NCBI GenBank assembly: GCA_964399985.1
Contig: CAYNRY010000001.1
Location: 1,054,027 to 1,118,026 of the forward strand
DNA length: 64,000 nucleotides
Direction of reading: 5' to 3'
Source: an uncultured Micavibrio sp.
GTDB lineage: Bacteria > Pseudomonadota > Alphaproteobacteria > Micavibrionales > Micavibrionaceae
The translations under genes and the position numbers were made by a program. Every line of letters begins with the position of its first letter. Position 1 is the first letter of the stretch. Below the pieces are notes generated by a model, which searched no databases, was not told the DNA's origin, and saw only the letters and a list, made by a program, of their open reading frames with translations. This document shows positions 21,321-64,000 of this stretch, piece by piece.

Positions 21321-22079
21321 CTATCTCCGCTTGAAACCCAGAACATATAAAATGGTACAGTTCTGTCCTGCGGCATTCGCGTACTCTGCCGATCCCGCAA
21401 CCGCAGCCGCCGGGCTGACATTGGGGGCCGTGCATGGTAATGCTCCGCCACCTGAAGCCGCGATTAAACGTCCAGATGTCGGATTTCCGTCATCTATTTT
21501 CTGATCGAGCTTTCTTGTTTCAATACCACTCAATAAAGGTCCTGTTGGATAGCGACCCTGTGGCTTGCCATATACAAAACTATGGCCGCTTTGGCCGTAC
21601 CAGGTGGTCGGATTTGGCGCAGCCCCGATCCAGCCAAGGGAAAAGCTTCCTTGACCCATATCGAAGCCAGGCCCTGTCTGCCCGCCGACCCAAAGGCCGT
21701 TATCATCAAGTTTCCCCGTATATCCTCCTGATATCAGATCGGCTTTGGAAAGATGCTGAAACACGATTCCTTCTTCGATAAGGACAGGATCATTAAAGCT
21801 TTCATCATCGATAAAACCATCACCATTGCCGTCATCGGCTCCGGGCCAGACGGTGGAAGCATTTGGCATATCTCCCGGGTTCCGCTTATACATGTCATAA
21901 AAAGTCTCTACTGCCGCTTCAGAGTTTGTGAAGGCCGTTGCCACCTTGGAAATCACGGCATTATTATAAAGCTCTTGCCCTTTTAGAACCCCTCCGATCA
22001 ATAATCCGATAATGATCATGACTATCGATAGCTCGACGAGCGTAAAACCCAACTCTTTAGAATGTGATCGGAGAAACAA
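21321..22079 (-). CDS. Type IV pilin-like protein (prepilin-type N-terminal cleavage/methylation domain)
   Basis: 252 aa, TTG start with GGAAGG 7 nt upstream. Leader MFLRSHSKELG then FTLVELSIVMIIIGLLIGGVLKG (Gly-1, Phe+1, Glu+5). C-terminal Cys-X24-Cys loop. Confidence 0.85.
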   Translation of the reverse strand: MFLRSHSKELGFTLVELSIVMIIIGLLIGGVLKGQELYNNAVISKVATAFTNSEAAVETFYDMYKRNPGDMPNASTVWPGADDGNGDGFIDDESFNDPVLIEEGIVFQHLSKADLISGGYTGKLDDNGLWVGGQTGPGFDMGQGSFSLGWIGAAPNPTTWYGQSGHSFVYGKPQGRYPTGPLLSGIETRKLDQKIDDGNPTSGRLIAASGGGALPCTAPNVSPAAAVAGSAEYANAAGQNCTILYVLGFKRR

Positions 22080-22210
22080 CGTTTAACCTTCCCTTAAATT
22101 TGTCATTACAGACTATCAGTTTTAGGTTAAAGTTTCTTTTCTATTTTAAGATTGCGTTATATTTTTCCTCATAAGCTAGATGATACTTCAATTCATTGGG
22201 AGAACCTCAA

Positions 22211-23170
22211 ATGCTGCAGCCCGCCAAAATCATGCCGGAACCGAATAAACGCTATCGCCTGATTACAAGGAGCGATATGGACGGCCTTGTATGCGGAATT
22301 TTGCTTAAAGAGCTCGACCTGATCGACGATATTATGTTCGCGCACCCGAAAGATATGCAGGACGGACTTATCGAAGTTACATCCAACGATATCACGACGA
22401 ATTTGCCGTTCGTTCCCGGCGCTTATCTCGCTTTCGACCACCACGCAAGTGAAGTTTCTCGCTCTACAGGCTCTAAAGCCAATCACGTTATTGATGCGAA
22501 AGCCCCTTCTGCGGCGCGCGTCGTCTATGATTATTTCGGCGGCAAGGCGCGTTTCCCGAAAGTGTCGGATGCGATGATGGAAGCCGTTGATAAAGCCGAT
22601 GCCGCGCAGTTTTCAAAGGAAGATATCCTCGATCCGAAAGGCTGGGAGCTTCTGTCTTTTATCATGGATGCCAGAACCGGCCTTGGCCGTTTTCAGGATT
22701 TCAATATTTCCAACTATCAATTGATGATGAAGCTGATCGATACCTGCCGCGATCATCATATTGACGATATCCTTAAATTACCGGACGTTAAAGAACGCGT
22801 CGATCTCTATATGGAGCATCATGCAAAACATAAGGAACAACTGGAGCGCTGCGCGAAAATTCATGACAATCTGATCGTGCTTGATCTGCGCGAAGAAGAG
22901 AAAATATGGGCTGGTAACCGCTTCTTTATCTACGCCCTCTTTCCTGACTGTAATATCTCCATTCACGAAATGTGGGGCAAGGGAAAACAAAATACGGTTT
23001 TCGCCATCGGTAAATCGATTATCAATCGCTCCAGCAATACCAATGTCGGAGAGCTTTGCCTGAAATACGGTGGCGGCGGCCACAACGCGGCAGGCACTTG
23101 CCAAGTCGCCAATGAAAAAGCCGATGACGTTTTAAAAGAACTGATCGGCCAGATCACGAAGGACGGTTGA
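22211..23170 (+). CDS. DHH-family phosphoesterase (NrnB/COG2404-like)
   Basis: SDMDGLVCG, AFDHH and GGGGHNAAG motifs. Start placed at ATG 22211 (GGGAGA 7 nt upstream); the track ORF begins at TTG 22196. Confidence 0.75.
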   Translation: MLQPAKIMPEPNKRYRLITRSDMDGLVCGILLKELDLIDDIMFAHPKDMQDGLIEVTSNDITTNLPFVPGAYLAFDHHASEVSRSTGSKANHVIDAKAPSAARVVYDYFGGKARFPKVSDAMMEAVDKADAAQFSKEDILDPKGWELLSFIMDARTGLGRFQDFNISNYQLMMKLIDTCRDHHIDDILKLPDVKERVDLYMEHHAKHKEQLERCAKIHDNLIVLDLREEEKIWAGNRFFIYALFPDCNISIHEMWGKGKQNTVFAIGKSIINRSSNTNVGELCLKYGGGGHNAAGTCQVANEKADDVLKELIGQITKDG

Positions 23171-50702: not shown

Positions 50703-50733
50703 GAAAAAACCCCGCCATTTGGCGGGGTTTTTG
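50703..50733. terminator. Bidirectional rho-independent terminator between ppa and the pilin gene
   Basis: AAAAAACCCCGCC-ATTT-GGCGGGGTTTTT, with A- and T-tracts on both sides. Confidence 0.8.
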
Positions 50734-50752: not shown

Positions 50753-51589
50753 TTATTGCTGAACGCGGATGTAAACACCACATGAAGTTGCTGTGACCGC
50801 TGTAGCATAGGTCGCAGCATCAGTGTTAGCTGAAACACAGCCAATTGGCGGAGTACCTGTAGAAACGGAACCCATAGCAATAACGGAACCAACGTTTGGC
50901 GCACCATCATCAAGTTTCGCATCGATACGGGAGGCTTGACCCGGGGTCAAGCTACCTGTACCCGCAGCAGCACCAGTAGTTGCAGTAGCAATAGTAGAAG
51001 TAGCACCTGCCGCAGCAATACCGTTATGGATCAACAAATAGTGACCGCCTCTTGGAACTGTACCCGTGCCTGGTGTGGCCGTTGGCCTTACAACACCGTT
51101 TTGATAGCCGATAAAGATTTGCCCGGGGACTTCCGCGGAAGGAACGGTTGCTCCGGATTCAACAGGCGAACCAGACGCAGGGTTACGAATTCCACCCAGA
51201 AGGTCCGTAGCGGCAAGTTGTGTCCAGGCTGCAATATTTTCGGATGTATTAGCCTGAGCAGCACCCGCACTATTCAATGGACCAATTTGGTTGTTACCTA
51301 GAGCGGCGGCAGTGACAGCTGCACACATTGTTCCAGCAAGGCAATTTGGCAAACGCGTTTGTGGCGATGTAATATCACCCGGCAATGCCGCGTAAGAATC
51401 GCGGAACGTGTTCATCGCCGCGTCGATCGCTTTGATTTTAGAAACTGTCGAAGCCAGACGCGCGTTGGCGATCAGTTCCTGGCCCTTCAAAATACCGCCG
51501 ATCAAAAGACCGATAATAATCATAACAATGGAAAGTTCGACAAGCGTAAAACCCTTTTCACCCTGTCTCGAGTTTGTAGTTGCAGTCAT
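50753..51589 (-). CDS. Type IV prepilin (278 aa), candidate major subunit of the adjacent pilus locus
   Basis: Start set at ATG 51589 (AGGAGG 7 nt upstream). Leader MTATTNSRQGEKG then FTLVELSIVMIIIGLLIGGILKGQ. Ala/Thr/Gly-rich globular part. C-terminal Cys-X18-Cys loop. Confidence 0.85.
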   Translation of the reverse strand: MTATTNSRQGEKGFTLVELSIVMIIIGLLIGGILKGQELIANARLASTVSKIKAIDAAMNTFRDSYAALPGDITSPQTRLPNCLAGTMCAAVTAAALGNNQIGPLNSAGAAQANTSENIAAWTQLAATDLLGGIRNPASGSPVESGATVPSAEVPGQIFIGYQNGVVRPTATPGTGTVPRGGHYLLIHNGIAAAGATSTIATATTGAAAGTGSLTPGQASRIDAKLDDGAPNVGSVIAMGSVSTGTPPIGCVSANTDAATYATAVTATSCGVYIRVQQ

Positions 51590-51731
51590 TCTAGTTCCTC
51601 CTAAAAATTTTCCCCGAAATGGGTAGCTCACAGTATACATGGAAATCGGGATAAATCTATCCCGGGCAATCTATATTCTCATGAAAAACTTAACAAAGTC
51701 CTAGCTTCATAAAAATTTCATAAAATGTGAT

Positions 51732-52466
51732 CTATTTCTTAGGGACCTTCTGGCAAAGCGGGCTTTTGGCCGCGTCTTCCTTGCCTAATATGACTTCGCA
51801 GGTAAGATTGATATTGGCATTATATTCGGAGACGCTCATTCTCTCCCCGTCCGTTTTAAGGATTTCGAGCATAAGCAAATATGCCGCCTGTTTGTCGCCC
51901 AAATCGGCTTTTAACATAGGCTCCATATTGCGGGTCCAGATCGGCATTGGCGGCTTATAGATTGAGCCGAGCTTGCGGGCAATCCTCAAGGCTTCGTCCA
52001 TATCCTTCATTCTGTGGCGCGCCAGATAGGCTGCCTGTGCCAGCCATCGCCAGTTTTGCGGACCCGGCTTCATCCCGGCTTTTTCCAGATAGGCAATGAC
52101 AGGCTTTAACTGTTTCTCGTCGGGCGTCGCCCCGAAATAATAGGCAGCCATGTAGGGCATAAAATGGGATTTTGAATCGAGAGCATCCATCAAAACAAAC
52201 CATCTACCCAAATTATCGTAGTTATAAGCCTTTAGATTTTGCGTCTGGCCTATGCTGCCAAAATTCTGCAGGGCCAGCCCATACACCCTGTAACCTAAAG
52301 ATATATCGTCTAAAAAAGATATCTTGGCAGATGACATCTTAGGTGCCGGCGGCACGTTGGTCCATTTCGTATATATATTACTCGAATAGAACCATAAGCC
52401 GATATTCAATACCGTGATGATGAATAACGCTAGGTATAGTTTCAGATTTCGATGCTGAAAGGCCAT
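51732..52466 (-). CDS. N-terminally anchored hypothetical protein of the pilus locus
   Basis: 244 aa. One TM helix (LKLYLALFIITVLNIGLWFY) then a helical soluble domain. Separated by 1 nt from the ABC-2 permease gene. Confidence 0.6.
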   Translation of the reverse strand: MAFQHRNLKLYLALFIITVLNIGLWFYSSNIYTKWTNVPPAPKMSSAKISFLDDISLGYRVYGLALQNFGSIGQTQNLKAYNYDNLGRWFVLMDALDSKSHFMPYMAAYYFGATPDEKQLKPVIAYLEKAGMKPGPQNWRWLAQAAYLARHRMKDMDEALRIARKLGSIYKPPMPIWTRNMEPMLKADLGDKQAAYLLMLEILKTDGERMSVSEYNANINLTCEVILGKEDAAKSPLCQKVPKK

Positions 52467-52467
52467 T

Positions 52468-53235
52468 CTAGAATTGCCGTTTTCTTAAATCCACGAGTGT
52501 TGCAACCAGTATTAAAACAACGAATAAGGCTGTTTGTACCAGAATGAAAACATAATCCTTCATTCCATCGACGCCATATAAAAGCCAGGATGTTTGAGTC
52601 ATCAGATCCAGTCTTGGAAATAAAGTCGAAACCGCCTGAAAAATATATGTCATGAGCTGATAGCCGATAAAACTTTCCGAAGGGGTTTTCGCAACGAACA
52701 ATAACTGCCCCATCAGGCGCCCGAGAATATAAAAGCCGAGCGTCGCAAGTGACGCGGCGACAGGGCTCGACAAAACCATCGAGAAAAATAAGGCGACATT
52801 TACAATTAGTAAATATTCGCAAATAACACCCGTCGACCAGTAGATAACACCTTCGGCATTGCCTATTTTATTGGCGACAAACCCGAGCCCCAGACAAAGC
52901 GCAGCGGACACAATAAATGCAAGAATGGAAAATCCGGCAGCATGAGACAGGACAAAACTATTGCGACTGACGGGCCGCGTTAATAAATATTCGACATCGC
53001 GAGAGTCAAAAGATCTTCGAATGAAGAACACGACGAATAGAACCAATCCTGTCAAACCGAGAAGACGCAGGCTGCCCGCCAGATAAACGACAGAGAACAA
53101 TTCTTTTTCAACAACCGCCGAGGACGACAGGAAAAGAGAAATAAAGCCCCCCAGAACCATGATACCTACCAAGGACAGGAATAGCTTATCTCTGCGCGCT
53201 GCGGTCAGGACATATTTAACAAGTGTCGAATTCAT
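52468..53235 (-). CDS. ABC-2 type transporter permease-like protein (6 TM)
   Basis: 255 aa, six predicted TM helices, with the first TM followed by a long loop as in ABC-2 permeases. No NBD is fused; the candidate partner ATPase is at 59711-60457. Confidence 0.65.
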   Translation of the reverse strand: MNSTLVKYVLTAARRDKLFLSLVGIMVLGGFISLFLSSSAVVEKELFSVVYLAGSLRLLGLTGLVLFVVFFIRRSFDSRDVEYLLTRPVSRNSFVLSHAAGFSILAFIVSAALCLGLGFVANKIGNAEGVIYWSTGVICEYLLIVNVALFFSMVLSSPVAASLATLGFYILGRLMGQLLFVAKTPSESFIGYQLMTYIFQAVSTLFPRLDLMTQTSWLLYGVDGMKDYVFILVQTALFVVLILVATLVDLRKRQF

Positions 53236-53240
53236 TTCTA

Positions 53241-55241
53241 TTAAAGCTTAAATGGTCTGCGATCTTGGGAATAAACCCTGTACAGTTCTTTATCCGTATT
53301 ATGAATTGAATCCTGACCGCTTTGAAGGATTGTTGCCTTGATCAAGATGATAACTTCGTTTTTTGTAACCTGATCATCTTGTCCACGGAAGGCCGCACCC
53401 AAAACAGGAACTTCTCCCAAAATAGGAACAGCACGTTGTCCTGATTCCGTTCTGTCTTCCAAAAGACCGCCCATAACAAGCGTTTCACCAGAACGCATGT
53501 TCAGCATGGTATCAACTTCTTTGGTGCTTACGATAGGGATGGATGAGGCAATACCTGAATCTCCCATTCCAACAGAGGCAAGAATTACCTGAACTGCCGG
53601 ATCGTCAACAAATCCTGTAATCCGCGAAATAGTCGGACGAACCTGCATCGACACCATGTTTCTTTCCAGATCGATCGACGGCATGACATTGATCAACACA
53701 CCTTCAGGGACGTTTTTGATTTCAGAGTCAATTGTGAGGTCGGTATTCCCTGTTTCTTCGTCTTCTTCTCTGGTTGCGTCAAGCTCGAAATAAACCTGAT
53801 TTTCAGCCACGTTTAGAATTGCCGATTGGTTATTCAATACTGTCAGGCGCGGGCTGGCAAGCGCATGCACGGTGCCGAAACGCTGGATAGCCGAAACGAG
53901 GTTTTCAAGGCCGTTACTGCCATTTTGAATGACAAACGTGGCCGGCTCGCCAGGCGTGAGAGCGCCTCTTGCAATATTTAAAGAAGCACCAAACGTATCG
54001 CTATCGTTTAAGATGGACCAGTCAATACCATAGGTAAATTCATCACTTAGCTCGACTTCAAGAACTTTGGCTTCGATGAGAACCTGAGATGTTACCGACT
54101 TGCGCATCAGATCCAGATAAGTCGATATCTGGTCGTGCGCACGTTGCGTAGCATAAATAGAAATAAGACCCGCCTGCTTGTTAAGCGAATAGCTTGGTTG
54201 ATAAGTCGTGCCGCCTTCTTCCGAAGAGCTGACAGACGGCAAGGAATTGACATTCAATTGAACTTGTTGCGGGACAGCCGTGGTCGGAGCCGCAGTCTGG
54301 TTAGCCGATTGATCGTCCGGCGGGGACGTCGTCGGTGGAACCGAAGACCCTGTCGGATTATTCGCCGCAGATGTAGGGTCAGACGTATTCAAAGGAACCG
54401 CAGGGACGCTCTGACCCGCGCTGTAGTTAGAAACCAGCGAGCTTCTTTCTTCTCCAGCCTGTGGCGCCTCTTCATTCAAACTACCTTCATCCAAAGGAGG
54501 CACTGGAGGCGGAGCCGAAGACATCATGTTCAATTCAGGATCGGAAGACGTTATCTGATAATTCAACTGAGAATTTGAAGTCAAAATTTGTTGAATATTC
54601 GTGTTTAACTCACCCCAGAAATCTGATTTAGCTTCTCCGCTAATTGAATAGGATGAGCCGGTTGTCGCGCCGCCCCCCTCGCCCCCAGCAACCTCGGTAG
54701 ACGTCGTGACCGAGCTTGAGCTTTCTCTGGTCATCGCCAGATATTCAACTTTATAGTTTTTTGTATATGGCGTATCGAGCTCGATCTTTACCGTATCGTC
54801 CTCAAACTTGTAACGGAGCCCTGAAATTTCGCTTATCTGGCTCAAAACCATATCGAAGGGTTTATTTCTAGCCGTATAAATAATCGAACCTTTGATGCGC
54901 GGGTCCAATTGAATATCGTAATCCGCTTGCTTGGAGAGTTCAAAGAGAGCATCCCGAAGAGGAATGCTTTGATTGATGGCGATAGAAACCAGAGGCATCG
55001 GCTTCAAATTTGCAGAAGTATCGGCAACGTAAGGCTTTAAATCAGGAACGCCGTTGGCAGATGAATCTTCAAGAGGCACTTCCCTTGGCGCCAGCATATC
55101 TCGATAATCCTGAACTTCCTGATTGGTTGTTCGATCCGCTTTCAGCGTATTTTCTGTGAGCTGGCAAGCCGCCATACTTAGAATAACCGAGGCGCAGGCT
55201 GATGTGATCAGAACGGTACGGAAGGAAAATGCACTCTTCAT
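53241..55241 (-). CDS. pilQ: Secretin (PilQ/MshL/GspD family), probable lipoprotein, with a Ser/Thr/Pro-rich insert
   Basis: 666 aa. Signal plus lipobox-like LSMAAC. N0-like domain. Low-complexity region of about 150 aa. Secretin core ...IEAKVLEVELSDEFTYGIDWS... VPILGEVPVLGAAFRG...VIILIKATIL. Confidence 0.88.
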   Translation of the reverse strand: MKSAFSFRTVLITSACASVILSMAACQLTENTLKADRTTNQEVQDYRDMLAPREVPLEDSSANGVPDLKPYVADTSANLKPMPLVSIAINQSIPLRDALFELSKQADYDIQLDPRIKGSIIYTARNKPFDMVLSQISEISGLRYKFEDDTVKIELDTPYTKNYKVEYLAMTRESSSSVTTSTEVAGGEGGGATTGSSYSISGEAKSDFWGELNTNIQQILTSNSQLNYQITSSDPELNMMSSAPPPVPPLDEGSLNEEAPQAGEERSSLVSNYSAGQSVPAVPLNTSDPTSAANNPTGSSVPPTTSPPDDQSANQTAAPTTAVPQQVQLNVNSLPSVSSSEEGGTTYQPSYSLNKQAGLISIYATQRAHDQISTYLDLMRKSVTSQVLIEAKVLEVELSDEFTYGIDWSILNDSDTFGASLNIARGALTPGEPATFVIQNGSNGLENLVSAIQRFGTVHALASPRLTVLNNQSAILNVAENQVYFELDATREEDEETGNTDLTIDSEIKNVPEGVLINVMPSIDLERNMVSMQVRPTISRITGFVDDPAVQVILASVGMGDSGIASSIPIVSTKEVDTMLNMRSGETLVMGGLLEDRTESGQRAVPILGEVPVLGAAFRGQDDQVTKNEVIILIKATILQSGQDSIHNTDKELYRVYSQDRRPFKL

Positions 55242-55354
55242 ATAAAAACCTGTATTTAAAAGGTACGAGACGAATCGGAAACCGCAAGAATCACGGCGAA
55301 GTTGTCAAAAGATAGCCTATTTTCTGTATCTTTGCCAGAGCATAGTCTTTTACA

Positions 55355-56482
55355 TTAGTCGGAGATTTTCATGCCCGCGATATCAAGCCTTGTTAACACA
55401 TCGACTTTAGCGCCCATTTTAACTTGCTTGATTTTGATCATGAGATCACCCGGCAAATCTGATTGGGACAAGGCAGTCTCTTCTGAAATCAATCCTTGTT
55501 CAAAAAGGACTAAAAGAGACTGATCGAAACTGCACATGCCGGCTGACTGATTAGCTTCGATTATATCCTTGATTTTACTGAATTTCCCGTCATGGATAAG
55601 TTCCCGCACATGGCCCTCATTCAAGAGTATTTCCAAGGCTATCGTCTGACCGGGAATGATCGTCGGGATTAGTCTCTGGGATATAATCGCCTTTAGGTTT
55701 GACGCGATGCTAAAACAAATCTGGTGGCGCTGCTCTTCGGGGAACAGATTAACAACTCGCTGAATTGCCTGATAAGAGTTGTTTGTATGAATGGTCGCAA
55801 GGCATAAATGTCCCGTTTCAGAAGCCGTTAAAGCCTGCTCCATAACCTCGCGATCGCGTATCTCACCCACCAGAATAACATCTGGCCTTTGCCTTAAAGC
55901 GTTCTTGAGAGCGATGGAATAATTTTCCGTATCAACACCGACTTCACGCTGGGAAATAATGCTTTTCTGATGTTCGTGGTGATATTCAATGGGGTCTTCA
56001 ATGGTGATGATATGGCCTTGGCTATTCCTATTCCGATAGTCGATCATGGAAGCAAGCGTTGTCGACTTGCCTGACCCGGTCATGCCGGTAACAAGTATCA
56101 AACCTCTTTTTTGCATGGCCAGTTGCTCGAAAAGGGGAGGAAGATTTAGCTCTACAAAGTCGGGTATCTTCGAGACAATTCGCCTGATAACCAAAGCAGG
56201 ATTTTGGCGCTGTTTCATAACATTGACACGGAAGCGTCCATAGGCGCCCATATCAAGCGCGGAATTAAGCTCCATATTGGTTTCAAACTCCCGTTTTTGG
56301 CGAAGAGTTAGAATGTTATTTAATATTTCATCGAGATCGGCAGATTGAAGAGCCTGGTCGCCCAACTTCTCCATCCTGTCTTCAATTCTCAATGCCGGAG
56401 GATGGCCGACCGTCAGATAAAGATCCGTCGCCCTTTTTTCGTTCATCATCGTCAAATAGCCAAAGACTAGCGGTGAACTCAA
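55355..56482 (-). CDS. pilU: PilT-family retraction ATPase, PilU-like
   Basis: 375 aa. Walker A GMTGSGKSTTLASMI, IITIEDPIEY, ILVGEIRDREVM, ETGHLCLATIHTNN. ATGA-type overlap with pilT. Confidence 0.85.
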   Translation of the reverse strand: MSSPLVFGYLTMMNEKRATDLYLTVGHPPALRIEDRMEKLGDQALQSADLDEILNNILTLRQKREFETNMELNSALDMGAYGRFRVNVMKQRQNPALVIRRIVSKIPDFVELNLPPLFEQLAMQKRGLILVTGMTGSGKSTTLASMIDYRNRNSQGHIITIEDPIEYHHEHQKSIISQREVGVDTENYSIALKNALRQRPDVILVGEIRDREVMEQALTASETGHLCLATIHTNNSYQAIQRVVNLFPEEQRHQICFSIASNLKAIISQRLIPTIIPGQTIALEILLNEGHVRELIHDGKFSKIKDIIEANQSAGMCSFDQSLLVLFEQGLISEETALSQSDLPGDLMIKIKQVKMGAKVDVLTRLDIAGMKISD

Positions 56483-57627
56483 AACGAATACCCCTCTTCT
56501 TCAGCCGCGGCAACAGGAGCCGCCGGTTGACCTGGTTTGACTTGTCCGCCGCCTAAAGTCGCACTGGCTCTATTCGTCGCCGTGCTCTCATCTTCATCTG
56601 TTGTTTTCAAGAGCGCAAGACGCGCAGATTCTGGATCGACCAGCCCTTGCTCTAACAAGTTCTTAACAGCATCTTCCATTGTGATCATGCCGTAGCGAGA
56701 TCCTGTTTGCAGCATAGAATAAAGCTGCGGGATTTGGTTTTCACGGATCAGGTTTCTTACTGCGCCTGTCCCGACTAGAATTTCAAAAGCGCCTACTCTG
56801 CCCGTGCCGCCCGGCTTCTTCAAAAGTATCTGGGCGATAACTCCCTGTAGAGAACTGGAAAGCATCGCACGGATCATTTCTTTTTCCGCAGCCGGAAATA
56901 CATCGATGATACGATCGATTGTTTTAGCAGCAGTATTGGCGTGCAACGTGCCAAGAACCAAGTGTCCCGTTTCCGCAGCCGTCAAGGCAAGCGCAATAGT
57001 TTCATGGTCGCGCATCTCTCCAACCAGAATAACGTCAGGATCTTCCCGCAAGGCGCTTTTCAGAGCTCTTGCAAAAGATTTAGTATCAGCACCAAGCTCA
57101 CGGTGATTGATGAGGGATTTTTTCGATGTGTGGAAAAATTCAACCGGATCCTCGATGGTCAGAATATGCTTGGCCGTATGTTCATTGATATGATTGATGA
57201 TAGCCGCAAGCGTTGTTGATTTACCTGAACCCGTGGCTCCGGTCACAAGAATAAGCCCCTTTTCCAATTCGGCAAAACGGCGAATAACTGCCGGTAATTC
57301 CAGCTCTTGCATTGTCGGAATAACAGAAGGAATGGTCCGCAAAACTGCGGCAGTACCATTACGGTTCATAAATGCATTGACGCGGAAACGTGCCTTCTCA
57401 CCGAAAGCTACGGCAAAATCCATTTCAAAATTCTTTTCATACTCACCGCGCTGCTCATCCGTCATAATGGAATAAAGCATGGCGCGAATATTATCAGATG
57501 TCAGAACATCCGCTTTCAAACGCTTCAGAGTTCCGTGCACGCGTATTATAGGGGGATTACCCGAACTAAGATGCAAATCGGACGCGTTGTTTTGCATAAC
57601 GAACGCAAGTAATTGGGTTATATCCAT
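56479..57627 (-). CDS. pilT: Twitching motility ATPase PilT with a C-terminal extension
   Basis: 382 aa. MDITQLLAFVMQNNASDLHLSSGNPP, GATGSGKSTTLAAII, ILTIEDPVEF, ILVGEMRD, ETGHLVLGTLHANT. A tail of about 40 extra residues ends EEEGYSF. Confidence 0.92.
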   Translation of the reverse strand: MDITQLLAFVMQNNASDLHLSSGNPPIIRVHGTLKRLKADVLTSDNIRAMLYSIMTDEQRGEYEKNFEMDFAVAFGEKARFRVNAFMNRNGTAAVLRTIPSVIPTMQELELPAVIRRFAELEKGLILVTGATGSGKSTTLAAIINHINEHTAKHILTIEDPVEFFHTSKKSLINHRELGADTKSFARALKSALREDPDVILVGEMRDHETIALALTAAETGHLVLGTLHANTAAKTIDRIIDVFPAAEKEMIRAMLSSSLQGVIAQILLKKPGGTGRVGAFEILVGTGAVRNLIRENQIPQLYSMLQTGSRYGMITMEDAVKNLLEQGLVDPESARLALLKTTDEDESTATNRASATLGGGQVKPGQPAAPVAAAEEEGYSF

Positions 57628-57691
57628 GGCCTTCTCCCTGTTAGCCTAACTTTAAACTTATAAAAACAAAGATATAGTAAACAAATCTAAT

Positions 57692-58168
57692 TTAATTAAA
57701 ACCAAGCTGTAATCCGAATGCCAACAGCCCTATCACGCCGACTATTATTACAAGTCTGAACGAAAACCGTCTCTGGAATACCCCTAGGTAAATAATTGAT
57801 ACCAAAAAGGGCAGACAAAAGAGAAATGTCACGGATACTATGCTGATACCAGACCACAGAAAAACCATGATAGCGCAAAAAGCACATATTAATTCAATTA
57901 AAGGATAGAAAGCCGGTATGGCCCCTGTACAATGCCTGCATCTGCCCTTTGTCGAAAGCCACGAAATAACCGGAACGAGATCACGAAGACCTAATGTCGT
58001 TCCACAAGACGGGCACGCAGATCTTGAGGATGGCCCGCCTAATTTAAACCATGGAAGATTGCTTTTTTCGCGATAAATAATTGCAGATGCAAAACTGCCT
58101 GCGCAGAGTCCGGACAAGCCATAAACAATAATGAATATGATTTGAAAAATAAGGGTGTCGTCATTCAC
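57692..58168 (-). CDS. Prepilin peptidase homologue retaining only the N-terminal Cys-rich (DiS_P_DiS-like) domain; no A24 aspartyl protease domain
   Basis: 158 aa. GSFASAII...CPSCGTTLGLRDLVPVISWLSTKGRCRHCTGAIPAFYPLIEL is the PilD N-domain signature. The remaining 85 residues are 3 TM helices with no Asp at all. Confidence 0.7.
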   Translation of the reverse strand: MNDDTLIFQIIFIIVYGLSGLCAGSFASAIIYREKSNLPWFKLGGPSSRSACPSCGTTLGLRDLVPVISWLSTKGRCRHCTGAIPAFYPLIELICAFCAIMVFLWSGISIVSVTFLFCLPFLVSIIYLGVFQRRFSFRLVIIVGVIGLLAFGLQLGFN

Positions 58169-58170
58169 GA

Positions 58171-59634
58171 CTAATTCCCCCGAAGCGCAGCCAACCTGTC
58201 ATAAACCTGTTCACGCGAAAATCCACCAGATGAAGGCTCTCCATTTACCGAATAAACATCAAGCGCCTGCTCATAGAACTTTATCGCATTTGCTCTATCT
58301 TTAAGACGGTCGTAAATAACGGCCATGTTAAAATAATGAAGAGGATTTTCCGGCTGAAGCGTAACCGCCGCGTTCAAATGCTTTAATCCATCCTGAGGAT
58401 TGCCGGATTCGGCAAAGGCAAGTCCAAGTTGAGCTGCCACGGCAGCGCTCCGTGGATATCTTTCCTTCAGATCAAGCAAATTCTGCAATGCAACCGCTGG
58501 CTGCGTTTTACCGACGAGTCCCATCAGATTGGTGAGCGCCTCCGGATTATCAGGTTCGATATCAAGTATATGCCTGTAACCTTCGATCGCCTTTTGTGTT
58601 TCTCCGAGCTTCTGCAATGTAACGGAACGTCCCATCAAGATACGCAAATCATTGGGGTTCTTTTTATAAACTTCATTATAAAAAGCCAGAGCCGCCTCGT
58701 TATTGCCGAGACTCGCTGCCCTGCTTGCATTCACAAGTCGAGATTCGATTATCTCATTATCCTTCCCTCTCTCGACAATCATTTCATTACCATCGGCATT
58801 ACCTTTATGGACGATGATAATGCTTTGTCCCGGCTCCAATTCTGGATTGATGCTCGGCGGCGGAATATCTCTTAAAGCTTTCCCTTTAGGGGCGTCAAAA
58901 TAAACAGTCGCGGGGACGTTATCTTTTTTCTCAACCTTCTTGGGAAGGTTTATCGTTTCTCTTGCCGCCTCAAGTTCATTTTTTGGTTTTGGTTCAGGCT
59001 TCGTGGATGTTACCGGAGCGAGATTATCTTGCGCAGGGGGTGTCTGGGATTCTTCTGCCTCGGTAATCTTTATTTCTTCTGTCGGAGCGGGCTCTGACTT
59101 CGCTTCTTCAGCTTTTATCGCAGCGACAGCATCCTCTTTCTCCGAGATCGTCGGCGCTGTGTTTTCAGAAATCGGCATTACCGGAGAAGCAGAAATATTT
59201 TCACGGATAGCGGGAACATCCTGCCCTGCAATTTCACTTAAAGGAGCATCTTGATTTAAAACCATAGCTTCAGAATCACCGGAAACCGCAGGTTGCTCAA
59301 AATCACTGGCAGGCGTGGGTATAACTCCTTGGGCATTCTCAATGGGCGCGCTTTCAGAAACAGGCGTCGGTGCAACCGCGGAAACCGTAGGCTGAGGTAA
59401 AATTGCATTTTCTTTATTGTAAAAGTAAAAGGAAGCCCCTGCCAGAAGGGATAGTATAATTATTCCGCCCCCTAAAATTCCCGAAGTTTTTTTCCGCTTC
59501 TCGGGATGCGTAAAAATATTGTCATCATCATCATCATCGAAATCATTTTCATCTGCCAAATCGCTTGCTGACAGATCGTCTGCTGTATCCAGCTGGTCAT
59601 CGTCTAGGTGAAGGTCTTTATCGGAATCGATCAT
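58171..59634 (-). CDS. Bitopic TPR-repeat protein with a poly-acidic N-terminal tail
   Basis: 487 aa. Asp-rich N-terminus (…NDFDDDDDDN…), one TM helix (GILGGGIIILSLLAGASFYFY), Pro/Ala/Glu-rich linker, about 5 C-terminal TPRs. Confidence 0.8.
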   Translation of the reverse strand: MIDSDKDLHLDDDQLDTADDLSASDLADENDFDDDDDDNIFTHPEKRKKTSGILGGGIIILSLLAGASFYFYNKENAILPQPTVSAVAPTPVSESAPIENAQGVIPTPASDFEQPAVSGDSEAMVLNQDAPLSEIAGQDVPAIRENISASPVMPISENTAPTISEKEDAVAAIKAEEAKSEPAPTEEIKITEAEESQTPPAQDNLAPVTSTKPEPKPKNELEAARETINLPKKVEKKDNVPATVYFDAPKGKALRDIPPPSINPELEPGQSIIIVHKGNADGNEMIVERGKDNEIIESRLVNASRAASLGNNEAALAFYNEVYKKNPNDLRILMGRSVTLQKLGETQKAIEGYRHILDIEPDNPEALTNLMGLVGKTQPAVALQNLLDLKERYPRSAAVAAQLGLAFAESGNPQDGLKHLNAAVTLQPENPLHYFNMAVIYDRLKDRANAIKFYEQALDVYSVNGEPSSGGFSREQVYDRLAALRGN

Positions 59635-59710
59635 GGTATAATTTTTTCTGGGAAATGGAATCGTCCTGTAACTTTATACGCGAACGCTTTTTTTGCAAAG
59701 CGGGATCTAA

Positions 59711-60457
59711 TCATGCAGCCCCCCGGACAGCGTCATTGGCATTATTGACAATATGCAGAAATGCTCGTTCAAGGCTATTTTCATTCATTTGAGTTTTAAA
59801 GCCCGACGGGGTTCCACTGTAATGAATCACTCCATCATGAATAACCGAAATATTATCACAAATCTCATCCATATCAGCCAGAATATGGCTCGATAGAATA
59901 ACAGTCCGCCCCTCGCCTTTTACTTTCAATAAAAGATTTTTAACTAAGGCTCTTGCTAAGGGATCCAGACCGCTCATCGGCTCGTCCAGAATAAGAACGG
60001 AACAACCGGTGAGAATGGTGGCAATAAGCCCTAATTTTTGACGCATGCCCTTGGAATATGTTTGAACTTTGCGGGATAAAACAGACGGATCAAGCGCCAA
60101 GCCTGAAGCATATTCTTCCATCAAAGTTTTTTCGACTTTACGGTTATATAATTCGGCAGAAAACTTTATAAATTCGCCTCCCGTCAAAAACCATGGCGGA
60201 TCGAATCTTTCCGGTAGATAGGATATTTGCGACTTAACCGATTTATTATTTCTATCCGCATCCAGAATGCTTATATTTCCAGAAATTTCACCTTTAAGAC
60301 CGAGTAATATCTTGATCAATGTCGTTTTACCCGCGCCATTCAAACCGATAAGCCCGTAAGTTTCGGCTTTTTGAATCCCCATACTGACGCCATGAAGGAC
60401 CTGCCGCTTATCATATGCAGCCTTAAGGTTTTCAACATTTACAACGATATTACTCAT
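59711..60457 (-). CDS. ABC transporter ATP-binding protein (ABC-2 subfamily type)
   Basis: 248 aa. Walker A GLNGAGKTT, signature YSKGMRQKLGL, Walker B VLILDEP, H-loop SSH. Confidence 0.9.
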   Translation of the reverse strand: MSNIVVNVENLKAAYDKRQVLHGVSMGIQKAETYGLIGLNGAGKTTLIKILLGLKGEISGNISILDADRNNKSVKSQISYLPERFDPPWFLTGGEFIKFSAELYNRKVEKTLMEEYASGLALDPSVLSRKVQTYSKGMRQKLGLIATILTGCSVLILDEPMSGLDPLARALVKNLLLKVKGEGRTVILSSHILADMDEICDNISVIHDGVIHYSGTPSGFKTQMNENSLERAFLHIVNNANDAVRGAA

Positions 60458-60460
60458 GAT

Positions 60461-61087
60461 TTAGCCTGGCATGAAAGTTTGAGCATCAAGATTGAATGTT
60501 TGGTTAGGGCGCAATCTGATCGGAAAAATTTTATTACTTTTTATATCAAACCATTTTAGTTCGATAAAATCTTTATACACCCGAAGATCTATTGCCTCTT
60601 TCGGCAGATTTGCCGCTGTAATCCGGCGATTATTAAGCCAGATTGTCCAATCGTCTGGGGTAATAAATACGATGCCGCCAAGAGACAAGGCTCTGGCAGT
60701 GATGCTTGCCTCAGCAGCAACCGGCTCATCCCTTTGTAAACTTAGTCTTTCGCCAATATCCTCTGCCGGACTTCCATCATCCATCACGTTGGTGTTAAAA
60801 CCACTGCGCGCCTCGCGAAGCAATGCCTGTTCATTCGGATTGAAAAACAAGGATTGTATCGCCGGCGGCGTATATATTTCTTTTTTATACTTTTCTTTTA
60901 GTTCTTGCTCGATGTGCTTTAAAATAAGGACTTCAGGCGCAAGCGTATTTGCCAGGACTCCCAATTGCGATGGCTGAATCTGCGATTGCTTTAATTGCTG
61001 CGGAAGATCCTGCGCATAGGATATATGCCCTATGCCTAGCGAGGCACATATCACTACATATGAGAGAAAACTTCTTTTCTTAATCAT
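60461..61087 (-). CDS. Secreted hypothetical protein in the PilP/MshK position
   Basis: 208 aa. Signal peptide, Gln-rich linker, beta-rich C-terminal domain. Assignment rests on position and architecture only. Confidence 0.45.
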   Translation of the reverse strand: MIKKRSFLSYVVICASLGIGHISYAQDLPQQLKQSQIQPSQLGVLANTLAPEVLILKHIEQELKEKYKKEIYTPPAIQSLFFNPNEQALLREARSGFNTNVMDDGSPAEDIGERLSLQRDEPVAAEASITARALSLGGIVFITPDDWTIWLNNRRITAANLPKEAIDLRVYKDFIELKWFDIKSNKIFPIRLRPNQTFNLDAQTFMPG

Positions 61088-61761
61088 TGCGCAGCCCCCT
61101 CAGGTGAGCTTGACTGACTAGCCGCGGTTGTCTCCGGAGAGACGGAAGATCTCGCCGCCATTGTCTTCCATTCAAGCTCAATCGATGTCTTGATAAGATT
61201 AACGGCTTTTCCCCGGTTAATATTGCGCAGAGTATCTGACGTAAGCTTTTCAGCTTTGGACATTCCAAGCCGCGTAAGATCGATCTTTCCCGGATATCTT
61301 TCCTGTATCAATTTTATAAAACTGTAAACATCCGTATCTTCAAGGCTGTCCAGTTCGACTTTGATCGGGCTTGTCAAAATAACATATCCGGCTTCACTGG
61401 CACGGGGATCTTCAATTAATTGTCCGGTGGCGATACTGTATTTTGCGATGATAACACCAGATGCGGCGCGAATTTTTTCAAAATTCGTCTGCGCTTCAAC
61501 CCTGCCCTGATCGTTAAAAAAGCCTCTCGCTTCTATATCCTTGAAATCTCTCAATTGCGTTTGCAATAAGGCATATTCCTCTTTTAACTTCTGGATTTCG
61601 ACCCGCTTTTGTTGCAAGGCTGATTTTGCCGTGCTTAAAACGCCTTCAGCCTCAATTTTTTGAGGAATGAGATATTCATATAATGAATATGCCGAGCCAC
61701 CGCAGAGCAATACCAGCCCTGCCAAGACGATAAGTCTATTTCGCCCCAGTATTTCCAGCAT
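61084..61761 (-). CDS. Bitopic coiled-coil protein, PilO/MshJ/GspM-like
   Basis: 225 aa. N-terminal TM helix (LIVLAGLVLLCGGSAY), coiled coil (QQKRVEIQKLKEEYALLQTQL), alpha/beta C-terminus. 4-nt overlap downstream. Confidence 0.5.
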   Translation of the reverse strand: MLEILGRNRLIVLAGLVLLCGGSAYSLYEYLIPQKIEAEGVLSTAKSALQQKRVEIQKLKEEYALLQTQLRDFKDIEARGFFNDQGRVEAQTNFEKIRAASGVIIAKYSIATGQLIEDPRASEAGYVILTSPIKVELDSLEDTDVYSFIKLIQERYPGKIDLTRLGMSKAEKLTSDTLRNINRGKAVNLIKTSIELEWKTMAARSSVSPETTAASQSSSPEGAAQ

Positions 61762-63370
61762 TTACAATTTCCTTTTTGATTTCAATTTCCCCGGTATAGA
61801 CATCAGAAGCTTTTCTGCGTTCAGCACTAATACCCGTTTCGCTTATAACGGTTCCGGTATAGGTCAAATCTGCCAATTGTTTTAAGACCGTGACACTATA
61901 TCCGTTTAGTTTCTGCGTAAGCCTGTTGCTAAAATTCTCCAATTGCTTGTTGCCATCCTGAGGCTTTGTCGTGCCCGGGAATGTAAACTTTAGAATAATT
62001 CTGATAGCCTTATTATTAGCGGCACTTCCGTCGGCATTGACCGCGCCCGTCGTATTAGGCGCCTCGCTTTGATCAATTAAAATCTCGTCGATGCGCAAAT
62101 CTTTTAATTGCGCGCCTATTATTTCGAGAGCCGGAAGAGGATCGAACGTCATCTGATCGAAATTCTTATATATGGATATAGAGCTTTGAATAAGCTTGAT
62201 ATCTATACCGAGCGACTCTTTGCGCTTGATCTCTTCCTGATAAATCTGATCGGCAAGGACCTGCATTCTTTGTACTTCAGCAACATTCTGCTTTGCTGCG
62301 TTTATTGCCTGATATTCGGTCGACAGGTTGAATAGGAAATAACCCATTGCAGCTGTCAATATTAGTGCAGCCAAAAACGCAGCTTTGCGCGGCTTGGAAA
62401 TACTCTCGATTTCCCGGGACTTCATCGGCATAGATGGACGAAGTTTTTTCGCAAACCAAGCGACATGTAAGGCCTCGGCATAATGAGGATCCAAATCCCG
62501 TCCGACATTCAATCCAGCGAGCTCAGCGGCTCTTTGTAATGTCAGCAGATGAAATTGGCAGCGGATATTGAGCATACCCTCAACCAGCGCGCCATAATCC
62601 GGTTTCGCCACCATCATAATGTCAAGCCCGTCATTCTGAGTGTAGCCAAAACGCGCCAGATAGCTGATGGTCGACTGTATCTCCTGAACGACATCGGATG
62701 CCCATTGAGCACCGTTACCCTCTACTGGTTGAGATACGGGGGTAATACGAGTCAGGGCAATCTGGTCGCCTTTAATAACAACCTGACGTAATCCACCACC
62801 ATGATGCTGACCGATCAGGATCGACCATACCGATCTTTCCGTTTGCCGGTTTTCCTTGGCCAATTTGGAAGATAATTTTTCAACCAGTTCAACCGATTCC
62901 ATCGGAAGCAAACAATAGCTTGAGACAGTGCAGTCGGATCGCTTGATAGCATCAAGTAACTTTCTCAGCGCGTCCGTCGAAGGCACCGCTGAAAATAAAT
63001 ACAAAGTTTCCTGATCGCCTGATTTTTTCTTTTTACTTTTGTCTTTTATTTCCACAAAAGCGCGTGTCGGATAGCTCGGAAACGCCATATTAAGACGACG
63101 GGCTATGATATTCTTTTTATCGACTATATTGAGTTTGCCCACCTTTTCCTTACGGTAATGCTGCTCAACGGTGTCATTAAGGATATATATAGAGCCTGTT
63201 CCGGCCTCGCGGTTGAGGACATCGGCCACATTCACTTCAAAGTCGGGCGTTCGCCAACCAAAATTATGGACAAGATTCGCGCTTCTGGAGCTGACTTTGT
63301 AGATACAAAGCGAGTCGTCCGTAAGTAGTAAAACGCATTTTGCAGCTGAAATAAACGACAAGAGAACCAC
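61736..63370 (-). CDS. Fused PilM-like (cytoplasmic) / PilN-like (TM plus periplasmic) protein, MshI/GspL-type architecture
   Basis: 544 aa. Cytoplasmic domain of about 335 aa, one TM helix (AAFLAALILTAAMGYFLF), coiled coil, periplasmic domain of about 130 aa. 26-nt overlap with the next gene. Confidence 0.5.
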   Translation of the reverse strand: MVLLSFISAAKCVLLLTDDSLCIYKVSSRSANLVHNFGWRTPDFEVNVADVLNREAGTGSIYILNDTVEQHYRKEKVGKLNIVDKKNIIARRLNMAFPSYPTRAFVEIKDKSKKKKSGDQETLYLFSAVPSTDALRKLLDAIKRSDCTVSSYCLLPMESVELVEKLSSKLAKENRQTERSVWSILIGQHHGGGLRQVVIKGDQIALTRITPVSQPVEGNGAQWASDVVQEIQSTISYLARFGYTQNDGLDIMMVAKPDYGALVEGMLNIRCQFHLLTLQRAAELAGLNVGRDLDPHYAEALHVAWFAKKLRPSMPMKSREIESISKPRKAAFLAALILTAAMGYFLFNLSTEYQAINAAKQNVAEVQRMQVLADQIYQEEIKRKESLGIDIKLIQSSISIYKNFDQMTFDPLPALEIIGAQLKDLRIDEILIDQSEAPNTTGAVNADGSAANNKAIRIILKFTFPGTTKPQDGNKQLENFSNRLTQKLNGYSVTVLKQLADLTYTGTVISETGISAERRKASDVYTGEIEIKKEIVNAGNTGAK

Positions 63371-63377
63371 TTACCTG

Positions 63378-64000
63378 TTAGAAATTCATATTTTCAAAGC
63401 TACCATAAATCGGGCCGAACACCCCAGCAGCGATCCATAGGATCATACCTCCAAGCAGTAAAGTCAATGCCGGTTCGATCATCGCGATCATACCTTGAAC
63501 AGCTTCATCGACATCTTTTGTGTAAAACTCGGAAACCTGGTCGAAAACGGGAGACAGATTACCCGACTCCTCTCCAATCCGCACCATCCTGACAACCAGA
63601 GTTGGGAATTCACCTGAAGCATTAAAACCTTCGGAGAGAGTGGACCCAGTCTGAACTTTGTTGAGCGTCAATTCCAGCGCCTCATTCAAACCAAGATTCG
63701 AAATAGTATCCTGTGCCGCCTTCAGGCAATTTACAACTGGAATACCACTTGAATACAGCGCCGCAAAGGTCTGAGAATAACGCGCAATATTAATTTTCTT
63801 GATTAGATTTCCGGCTACCGGCAATCTTAGAAAAGCAATATCGGCGCGATAAGCAAAATCCGCAGACATCCTTCTCAGGATTTTATATGCAATTACAATA
63901 ATGACCGGAGCAAACAGAATAACCCACCAATACTGCTGGAAAAACGTCGATGTTGCGACAAGCGCAATGGTATAAAATGGTAAATCCTGCCCCAGATTGG
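63378..64000 (-). CDS. pilC: Type IV pilus platform protein PilC/GspF family, C-terminal part (5' end beyond the window)
   Basis: The frame is open from 63378 to the window edge. Hand translation upstream of the track's Met gives ..YWWVILFAPVIIVIAYKILRRM... Motifs FPTLVVRMVRIGEESGNL and IEPALTLLLGGMILWIAAGVFGPIY. Confidence 0.9.
   Translation of the reverse strand, partial: NLGQDLPFYTIALVATSTFFQQYWWVILFAPVIIVIAYKILRRMSADFAYRADIAFLRLPVAGNLIKKINIARYSQTFAALYSSGIPVVNCLKAAQDTISNLGLNEALELTLNKVQTGSTLSEGFNASGEFPTLVVRMVRIGEESGNLSPVFDQVSEFYTKDVDEAVQGMIAMIEPALTLLLGGMILWIAAGVFGPIYGSFENMNF

Follow-up and report, generated by a model that had tools for sequence, protein, structure and literature searches.

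At one end of a 64,000-nucleotide (nt) stretch of DNA from an uncultured Micavibrio sp. (contig CAYNRY010000001.1; the whole stretch is called the window here) lies a cluster of 13 minus-strand genes resembling those of a type IV pilus (T4P). This locus probably encodes the chromosomal retractile T4P machine of Micavibrio-type predatory Alphaproteobacteria, with nearly all of its parts gathered in one operon-like unit. Predation by Bdellovibrio requires type IV pili, and Micavibrio is a candidate "living antibiotic" whose likely pilus machine the present analysis defines as one conserved locus. Together with a motor ATPase encoded just upstream, the genes specify a platform protein, three proteins in the position of an alignment complex, an ABC transporter ATPase, a tetratricopeptide repeat (TPR) protein, a PilD homolog, the retraction ATPases PilT and PilU, a lipoprotein secretin, an ABC-2 permease, a 244-amino-acid (aa) anchored protein and a prepilin (Table 1). 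Two features stand out, an obligatory ABC-2 module and a PilD N-domain that stands alone; the PilD remnant is the least expected feature of the locus.

The original prediction presented this arrangement as a hybrid with an unusual parts list. That such a hybrid is rare is contradicted by a scan of a collection holding one genome per species, which returned 194 matching stretches: the locus is the standard cluster of Micavibrio and its relatives, kept across the whole lineage, and not a unique hybrid. The predicted alphaproteobacterial backbone is borne out, the host being a Micavibrio metagenome-assembled genome (MAG). The best match in the collection is a 99% identical MAG labeled "uncultured Micavibrio sp.", and homologs of the 541-aa protein of the cluster occur in MAGs of Micavibrio and of unclassified Alphaproteobacteria. 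A few records in the collection are labeled Pseudobdellovibrionaceae or Bdellovibrionales, which we take to be the older NCBI placement of Micavibrio. More broadly, a family profile of the 541-aa protein run against 1.84 billion proteins recovered 1,463 cluster representatives at an E-value limit of 1e-3; 487 of them stay within 1e-30.

Wherever the contig is long enough, the order of genes is the same (tblastn of all locus proteins against 80 loci): ATPase, platform, 541-aa, 225-aa and 208-aa proteins, ABC ATPase, TPR protein, PilD-like protein, pilT, pilU, secretin, permease and 244-aa protein. Across these syntenic loci the 541-aa marker protein has diverged to ~35% identity. The 541-aa gene is followed by the 225-aa gene in 76/76 loci, the latter by the 208-aa gene in 75/75, and this in turn by the ABC ATPase in 72/73; the PilD-like gene precedes pilT in 59/60 loci, pilT precedes pilU in 57/57, the secretin precedes the permease in 48/48, and the permease precedes the 244-aa gene in all 14 loci of sufficient length, as it likewise does in L082 and L085. 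Pairwise ratios of nonsynonymous to synonymous substitution (dN/dS) range from 0.01 to 0.21 across the genes tested, with the ATPases at 0.01-0.04 and the orphans and ABC genes at 0.02-0.14. Synteny in ~80 genomes and these ratios together indicate that the genes of the locus are real. Among the relatives, L084 and L085 share the order of the window and two distant loci depart from it. L082 (62% GC) is reshuffled: an AAA_22 ATPase, a full PilD, secretin, permease, 244-aa homolog and pilin come before the ATPase, platform, fusion protein, proteins of 218 and 162 aa and ABC ATPase, and pilT and pilU are absent from the locus. L083 retains the platform, fusion, O-like and P-like proteins, the ABC ATPase and PilT.

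The motor was completed from a public contig, L001, retrieved by exact look-up of the PilT protein and identical to the window across 14,000 nt. Its upstream continuation holds the complete 403-aa platform gene (3039-4250), preceded directly by the gene of a 605-aa ATPase, which is where pilB had been anticipated, just past nt 64000. This extension ATPase scores 512 bits with the PilB model TIGR02538 (cutoff 676) and 491 with GspE (cutoff 630), both below cutoff, and its nearest solved structures are the type IVa pilus (T4aP) ATPases PilF/PilB (434-413 bits), above GspE (342). Its match to the MshEN cyclic di-GMP (c-di-GMP) motif NF053729 reaches 65.9 bits (cutoff 38), and in its sequence residues ~50-101 show this motif (RIGDRLVGQGIITPDQLNVAL...MLGQVLVDLGFINEGMLSKFLAEA). 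By analogy with characterized homologs, in which this motif binds c-di-GMP, the ATPase may do the same; the motif is not exclusive to MSH systems, since some PilB proteins have it too. In L082 a PAS-GAF-GGDEF diguanylate cyclase gene (14839-16545) lies 2 kb from the pilus locus, which fits c-di-GMP control of an ATPase bearing MshEN.

Could the machine be a secretion device rather than a pilus? A type II secretion system (T2SS), or a T4P-like apparatus that uses a short pseudopilus to deliver hydrolytic enzymes to prey, would suit the full-length platform protein, whose best NCBIfam model is GspF (322 bits, cutoff 424) with PilC second (254), as well as the secretin, whose nearest solved relatives are GspD, and the fused PilM-N architecture, which is that of GspL, with EpsL/GspL among the structural matches. 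An incomplete T2SS has also been described in a cultured relative, the type strain Micavibrio aeruginosavorus ARL-13 (Wang et al. 2011, PMC3189940). Against this stand the retraction ATPases: PilT and PilU both exceed the curated TIGR01420 cutoff, they are fixed in the locus by the adjacencies given above, and a T2SS has no retraction ATPases, so that a plain T2SS is excluded. The ATPase is nearer PilB/PilF than GspE, the locus contains no GspC/H/I/J/K genes, and although the pilin N-terminus finds its best match in GspG, that match is weak (27.8 bits, cutoff 88.9) and the 265-aa mature pilin with its C-terminal Cys pair differs from the ~140-aa GspG. A secretion device of this kind is therefore an unlikely reading of the locus. 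As a separate observation, in L038 (13663-17811) the TPR gene is followed by the secretin without the PilD-like gene, pilT and pilU in between, and the remaining order is intact, which suggests that the retraction block can move or be lost as one unit.

The three genes downstream of the platform escape the sequence libraries. Five genes had been predicted to be without a firm family, and these libraries do fail on five; Pfam and NCBIfam give no real family match for 61736-63370, 61084-61761, 60461-61087 or 51732-52466, and scans of every member of the 541-, 225- and 208-aa families produce scattered chance Pfam matches only. For the 541-aa protein there is no Pfam, NCBIfam or PDB sequence match even when 29 homologs are scanned, and it was an AlphaFold2 (AF2) model and Foldseek, not sequence, that upheld its prediction as a PilM/N fusion. 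In the model (mean predicted local distance difference test score, pLDDT, 83) the first ~310 residues form an actin-like, cytoplasmic domain; next comes a helix of 68 residues comprising a transmembrane (TM) segment and coiled coil, and the C-terminal, periplasmic domain consists of two alpha-beta-beta units. Against the PDB, the PilM structures of P. aeruginosa, T. thermophilus and M. xanthus rank first (5eou, 2ych, 3jc8_Ma; E ~1e-11, probability 1.0); FtsA comes next and, after it, EpsL/GspL with its cytoplasmic domain (E ~1e-6). The predicted structure thus identifies the protein as a PilM-PilN fusion of GspL/MshI-like architecture.

Its two neighbors are placed by other means. The 225-aa protein is bitopic, with a TM helix at its N-terminus, a coiled coil and a domain in the periplasm; its family has no meaningful Pfam or PDB match across 35 homologs, a LAL_C2 hit being set aside as a chance match (2/35 members), and in an hhalign comparison with the fusion only the TM and coiled-coil region aligns, at a probability of 16%. 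The 208-aa protein has a signal peptide and, in the alignment, a conserved C-terminal block of ~80 residues, and its family finds no match in Pfam, NCBIfam or PDB across 35 homologs. From topology and position we infer that the former is the PilO/GspM/MshJ-position protein and the latter the PilP/GspC/MshK-position protein.

The secretin was predicted to be of lipoprotein type, and an N-terminal lipobox Cys is indeed kept in 54/57 orthologs. Its best NCBIfam model is MshL (TIGR02519; 208 bits, cutoff 250), ahead of GspD (105, cutoff 351) and PilQ (TIGR02515; 80, cutoff 284), and among PDB sequences it matches only the GspD type, weakly, at ~50 bits. Orthologs (the window, L003-L078) share the motif C-DLAxNYxKxDRxxNxExQD[FY]RD after the lipobox Cys. 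At the +2 position most have Asp, the enterobacterial inner-membrane retention signal, and the window protein has Gln.

The original prediction had likened the fused PilM/N and TPR arrangement to MSHA-type loci, and MSHA-like traits are present: the MshL-like secretin, the MshEN motif, the TPR protein and the single-locus layout. They raise the possibility that the locus is a divergent MSHA-type pilus (MSH family, Denise et al. 2019), with the ABC genes and PilT/PilU as lineage-specific add-ons of little consequence. The fused PilM/N-type protein would agree with this, as would the AAA_22 (MshM/GspA-like) ATPase beside the system in the distant L082 and L083, and MSH loci are without an active peptidase of their own and presumably use that of another system (Denise et al. 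2019). However, MshL is matched below cutoff, and mshM, which the TXSScan definition of MSH makes mandatory together with mshA, E, G and L (Denise et al. 2019), is missing: no AAA_22/GspA-like gene occurs in the window locus or in ~80 Micavibrio-type loci, an AAA_16/AAA_22 ATPase being found only in L082 (1-957) and L083 (7004-9341). In L083 this ATPase and a TPR gene form a pair on the opposite strand; the Micavibrio-type loci keep the TPR gene without the ATPase. Nor is there a minor pilin block of the mshBCDOPQ type, while MSH loci lack pilT/pilU, a PilD homolog and ABC genes. The retention of the ABC ATPase in both reshuffled relatives, and of the permease and 244-aa genes in L082, further argues that these are not add-ons. 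We judge an MSHA-type pilus improbable on this evidence.

Strong evidence places both ABC proteins, the ATPase and the ABC-2 permease, among the fixed and ancient parts of the system, as the inclusion of an ABC transporter in the original prediction implied. The best NCBIfam models of the ATPase are DrrA, a lantibiotic-protection ABC protein and GldA, and its best PDB matches are the nucleotide-binding domains of ABCA1/ABCA4, Rv1218c and NosF; judged by these sequence matches, it belongs to the ABC-2/ABCA (type V exporter) class. Exporters of this type handle lipids, lipid-linked polymers or amphipathic peptides, or act as mechanotransducers (NosDFY). The permease also holds up as predicted, its sub-threshold Pfam match in the window (E 1.4e-3) being backed by PF12679 in some homologs and by a weak match of the family profile to the ABC-2 permease PmtD (E 0.004); one source names a homolog as the permease component in an [quoted passage not shown].

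An unrelated passenger transporter with no part in the pilus would explain why the ATPase and permease genes stand six pilus genes apart, which is unusual for one transporter, and why neither a substrate nor a partner can be named. It would not explain their placement, held in 72/73 and 48/48 loci at ~35% marker identity. The ATPase keeps its place after the 208-aa-like gene in the reshuffled L082 and L083, and the permease and 244-aa homologs keep theirs after the secretin in L082; this persistence argues that the ABC genes belong to the machine. Tiny gaps (3, 5 and 1 nt in the window, where the 244-aa gene starts 1 nt past the permease end) and strong purifying selection (dN/dS 0.02-0.14) point the same way, and a passenger is a very remote prospect. 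For the ABC genes as parts of the pilus system, the leading guess, and a speculative one, is that the module aids the liposecretin or envelope assembly, because the secretin-permease-244-aa adjacency is fixed. Export of a pilin glycan by the ABC pair was considered and not adopted; no glycosyltransferase or oligosaccharyltransferase is found in the locus.

Two further proteins may share in this work. The AF2 model of the 244-aa protein (pLDDT 88) shows a TM helix at the N-terminus followed by a TPR-like solenoid that is all alpha, for which Foldseek returns generic TPR and helical-repeat matches alone (best E 0.09); its family profile gives nothing meaningful against PDB sequences and the libraries. 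In the TPR protein an acidic N-tail lies in the cytoplasm, a single TM helix and a long linker rich in Pro, Glu and Ala follow, and the TPRs are at the C-terminal end; its orthologs vary from 248 to 551 aa, and NCBIfam offers weak, sub-cutoff matches to PilW and Tgl. By its position it occupies a MshN/TadD/PilW-like place in the locus.

The PilD homolog of the window ends at residue 158. It was predicted to consist of the N-domain only, and it matches PF06750 (A24_N_bact, E 1.2e-22) with no match to PF01478 (Peptidase_A24). In 23 aligned orthologs the DiS-P-DiS motif (CxxC...P...CxxC) has invariant C52, C55, P66 and C77 and a nearly invariant C80, and a G-[KR]-C motif is present as well. Clade-B and distant orthologs of 250-280 aa contain both Pfam domains, with the motifs IDLxxxxLPN and LGxGDVKFF; those of the window clade have 152-198 aa and stop short of any catalytic aspartate. 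When mapped on a neighbor-joining tree of the 541-aa marker, GxGDxK is missing from the entire window clade, within which the PilD of L005, L006, L007 and L064 is still long but matches A24_N only. L072 and L081 form a separate truncated pair in the other clade, so at least two losses of the peptidase domain have occurred. Purifying selection acts on the remnant (dN/dS 0.11-0.21, against 0.06 for a full-length pair). A frameshifted pseudogene was ruled out by these ratios, the clade-conserved size and the 64 nt that separate the gene from pilT, and a nearby peptidase by the lack of GxGDxK in the 64-kb window and within 10 kb of 23 short-form or degenerate loci.

What the remnant does is suggested by the full-length enzyme. 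The Cys-rich N-domain of PilD is reportedly tied to zinc binding and N-methyltransferase activity (Pepe and Lory 1998; Aly et al. 2013), which makes a standalone methyltransferase an attractive reading; by this analogy the remnant may be a stand-alone N-methyltransferase or have a structural role. Repeated loss of the peptidase with the N-domain kept under purifying selection amounts to a natural experiment on the N-domain and pilin N-methylation. It is plausible that the pilin is cleaved in trans by an A24 peptidase from elsewhere. The same is presumed of MSH loci, which have no peptidase either and would rely on one encoded by a different system (Denise et al. 2019), and ARL-13 has a 552-nt peptidase gene, GMV_531, in a separate Tad locus (PMC3189940).

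The prepilin of the cluster, predicted at 278 aa in agreement with the gene calls of L001, begins with the leader MTATTNSRQGEKG followed by FTLVELS, with G-1, F+1 and E+5 in place. The leader, at 13 residues, is slightly long for the T4a type. The mature part of 265 aa contains Cys pairs, one of them C-terminal (last 30 residues). Where the contigs of relatives extend far enough, the pilin 3' of the 244-aa gene is the sole prepilin motif within ~10 kb of the locus. The window has another prepilin gene, at 21321-22079, which stands alone between clpX (19942-21246, plus strand) and a 324-aa open reading frame (ORF; 22196-23170, plus strand). Over ~21 residues its N-terminal helix, GFTLVELSIVMIIIGLLIGG, matches the cluster pilin exactly, and overall identity is 30% (E 1e-22); its product may serve as a minor pilin or as another major one.

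The same locus is carried by ARL-13 as GMV_1530-1544, beside leuB, leuD and leuC (Wang et al. 2011, PMC3189940, supplementary file 4; Table 1), and outside it that genome has other prepilin genes, GMV_212 and GMV_742-744 (PMC3189940). The published text refers to "multiple dispersed pil genes" and to a T2SS without GspCGHK, and draws attention to GMV1530 as a highly expressed pilin (PMC3189940), and a 2025 review says of M. aeruginosavorus merely that it "also possesses T4P genes". The original prediction had allowed that the gene order might turn out to be common and already annotated in characterized relatives. The order is common and occurs in ARL-13, but its annotation is generic and nothing in it is characterized: the locus was annotated loosely and piecemeal in 2011, unrecognized as one machine in a published genome. 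In the RNA-seq table of ARL-13, GMV_1530, at the orthologous pilin position, is the highest-expressed gene of the locus, and its two values go from 34.5 to 196.5 while those of the secretin go from 0.1 to 18.5 (PMC3189940). We read the two columns as attack phase, then attachment phase; ribosomal genes go from ~1 to ~45 in the same table (PMC3189940), which matches the rise of housekeeping genes on attachment reported by Wang et al. 2011 (PMC3189940). An AraC-type regulator gene lies 3' of the 244-aa gene in L085 (10787-11875) and L086 (5499-6587), as annotated for GMV_1531, and none is found there in the window.

Together, these observations suggest how a retractile pilus built from this locus would work. 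In extension, the PilB-like hexameric ATPase would dock on the GspF/PilC-like platform and the actin-like domain of the fusion and polymerize the 265-aa pilin. The fusion, 225-aa and 208-aa proteins would take the PilMNOP/GspLMC/MshIJK role, linking the motor to the lipoprotein secretin, and the bitopic TPR and 244-aa proteins would assist in assembling the secretin or the envelope. Retraction of the fiber, which would pull the predator onto its prey, would fall to PilT and PilU. The ABC-2 exporter, made of the ATPase and permease and probably the 244-aa protein, would be a fixed accessory module and a functional analog of Myxococcus PilGHI; as a best guess it would support envelope-spanning assembly, for example by handling the liposecretin or another membrane-embedded component. 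Leader cleavage would fall to an A24 peptidase encoded elsewhere, with the PilD N-domain left for N-methylation or a structural role.

Several points weigh against a retractile pilus. No active prepilin peptidase is found in the locus or the window by an A24 motif scan, and neither minor pilins nor a PilY1-like adhesin occur within ~10 kb of the locus in 80 loci; the original description of the machine as self-contained must therefore be given up for this clade. Platform and secretin both score higher with T2SS/MSH models than with T4aP models. No model or profile ties the 225-aa and 208-aa proteins to PilO or PilP. The rise of the locus genes in the second ARL-13 column is weak evidence of a specific role because housekeeping genes rise too. 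The cultured ARL-13, which carries the locus, makes genetics feasible. A bolder possibility, which we advance only tentatively, is that the locus represents a distinct, unnamed branch of type IV filaments in which an ABC-2 exporter and its TPR-like partner are obligatory, a stand-alone PilD N-domain serves as N-methyltransferase or assembly factor, and cleavage is performed by the peptidase of another system. If true, this branch would be widespread, spanning predatory and related Alphaproteobacteria. Two genes listed as "hypothetical" also gain putative identities from the structural models.

The feature list was drawn from the ORFs of the window and Pfam and NCBIfam scans of their proteins, with gene starts adjusted from the public calls on L001, and it reproduces all 13 minus-strand genes of the original prediction at their coordinates. 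Their tiny gaps and overlaps are only partly as predicted: intergenic distances are mostly -26 to +16 nt, but four are larger (142, 113, 76 and 64 nt). The 142-nt gap precedes the pilin, the 113-nt gap the secretin, and the 64-nt gap separates the PilD homolog from pilT; the 225-aa gene overlaps the fusion gene by 26 nt and pilU overlaps pilT by 4 nt. The predicted bidirectional terminator is also found, between the pilin gene and a convergent pyrophosphatase gene, with a 12-bp stem (7 GC pairs), a 4-nt loop and T-runs on either strand. An Rfam scan of the window gave zero matches. As in ARL-13, leuB, leuD and leuC adjoin the locus. Upstream of the ATPase gene, L001 has a divergently transcribed ORF of 151 aa (596-1051, minus strand) without a Pfam or NCBIfam match, and tblastn places same-position copies only in the window's clade of loci.

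Table 1. Features of the pilus locus in the window and annotated genes of the corresponding ARL-13 locus.
Genome	Feature	Position or gene	Strand	Basis or remark
Window	Platform protein (T2SSF)	63378..64000	-	Pfam T2SSF E 2.8e-25; gene cut by window edge
Window	Predicted PilM-PilN fusion, 541 aa	61736..63361	-	Predicted structure; ORF reaches 63370
Window	Bitopic 225-aa protein	61084..61761	-	PilO/GspM/MshJ position, from topology and position
Window	Secreted 208-aa protein (P208)	60461..61087	-	Signal peptide; PilP/GspC/MshK position
Window	ABC transporter ATPase, 248 aa	59711..60457	-	Pfam ABC_tran E 1e-22
Window	Bitopic TPR protein, 487 aa	58171..59634	-	TPR Pfam matches, residues 300-460
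Window	PilD homolog, N-domain only, 158 aa	57692..58168	-	Pfam A24_N_bact E 1.2e-22
Window	PilT, 382 aa	56479..57627	-	TIGR01420, 476 bits (cutoff 319)
Window	PilU-like ATPase, 375 aa	55355..56482	-	TIGR01420, 427 bits (cutoff 319)
Window	Lipoprotein secretin, 666 aa	53241..55241	-	Pfam Secretin E 1e-31 and Secretin_N_2
Window	ABC-2 type permease, 255 aa	52468..53235	-	ABC2_membrane_4 E 1.4e-3 (below cutoff); six predicted TM helices
Window	244-aa TM-anchored TPR-like protein	51732..52466	-	AF2 model; no sequence-library match
Window	Prepilin, 278 aa	50753..51589	-	Pfam N_methyl and TIGR02532; ORF reaches 51640
Window	Bidirectional intrinsic terminator	50705..50732	both	Hairpin and T-runs
Window	Second, unlinked prepilin paralog, 252 aa	21321..22079	-	Motif scan; N_methyl match
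ARL-13	Annotated prepilin	GMV_1530		
ARL-13	Annotated AraC regulator	GMV_1531		Between 244-aa gene and pilin
ARL-13	Annotated hypothetical	GMV_1532		765 nt
ARL-13	Annotated secretin	GMV_1534		
ARL-13	Annotated PilT	GMV_1536		
ARL-13	Annotated TPR	GMV_1538		
ARL-13	Annotated ABC transporter	GMV_1539		
ARL-13	Annotated hypotheticals	GMV_1540-1542		693, 645 and 1767 nt
ARL-13	Annotated T2SS F	GMV_1543		
ARL-13	Annotated ATPase	GMV_1544		

Set against the named classes, the locus fails at least one tested defining feature of each, and its parts list is a true mosaic. With T4aP it shares a PilT-family retraction ATPase and a prepilin with a short leader, G-1/F+1/E+5 and a C-terminal Cys pair; no PilM/N/O/P Pfam match is found in 29, 35 and 35 homologs of the three alignment proteins, the PilM- and PilN-like parts are fused in the predicted structure, the secretin is not of PilQ type, an active PilD is lacking, and there is no minor-pilin/PilY1 tip complex within ~10 kb in the 80 loci. 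For T2SS, the GspD, GspE, GspF and GspG models all stay below cutoff. The resemblance to GspL is in the order of domains (actin-like, TM, periplasmic ferredoxin-like), and the platform and secretin have the Gsp affinities described above, whereas retraction ATPases, an ATPase nearer PilB and a pilin far larger than GspG set the Micavibrio locus apart.

The MSHA system of Vibrio cholerae (mshHIJKLMNEGF and mshBACDOPQ) is alike in its single locus, MshEN-bearing ATPase, MshL-best secretin, fused PilM-N architecture and TPR protein in the MshN position, and in having no active prepilin peptidase in the locus. Unlike it, the Micavibrio-type loci have neither MshM nor a minor pilin block, carry pilT and pilU, a PilD-derived gene, the ABC-2 ATPase and permease and a TM-anchored TPR-like protein, and encode MshI/J/K-position proteins that escape all the sequence libraries used. 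MSH has been reported in Gamma- and Epsilonproteobacteria and Chrysiogenetes (Denise et al. 2019), and the Micavibrio host is an alphaproteobacterium. The PilD remnant resembles PilD (MEROPS A24A) in its N-terminal membrane domain with CxxC...P...CxxC and the G-[KR]-C motif; it differs in that the window clade has lost the aspartic peptidase domain together with the two catalytic Asp motifs.

The other close parallel is the T4aP of Myxococcus xanthus with its pilGHI genes: a near-complete machine in one locus that includes an ABC ATPase, a permease of ABC-2 type, a large pilin and PilT, in a predator. There, however, pilG, pilH and pilI are contiguous, while the Micavibrio ATPase and permease genes lie six genes apart with different neighbors, and Myxococcus has separate, recognizable PilM, PilN, PilO and PilP, a PilQ secretin and a full PilD. 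The likening of the two ABC pairs is one of class and locus context. Deletion of pilGHI, whose products are described as ABC-transporter-like, abolishes S motility. To our knowledge, pilGHI was until now the only ABC transporter linked to a pilus, its role unexplained since 1998. A pilus-linked ABC transporter fixed in a second, unrelated lineage of predators provides a comparative handle on that role.

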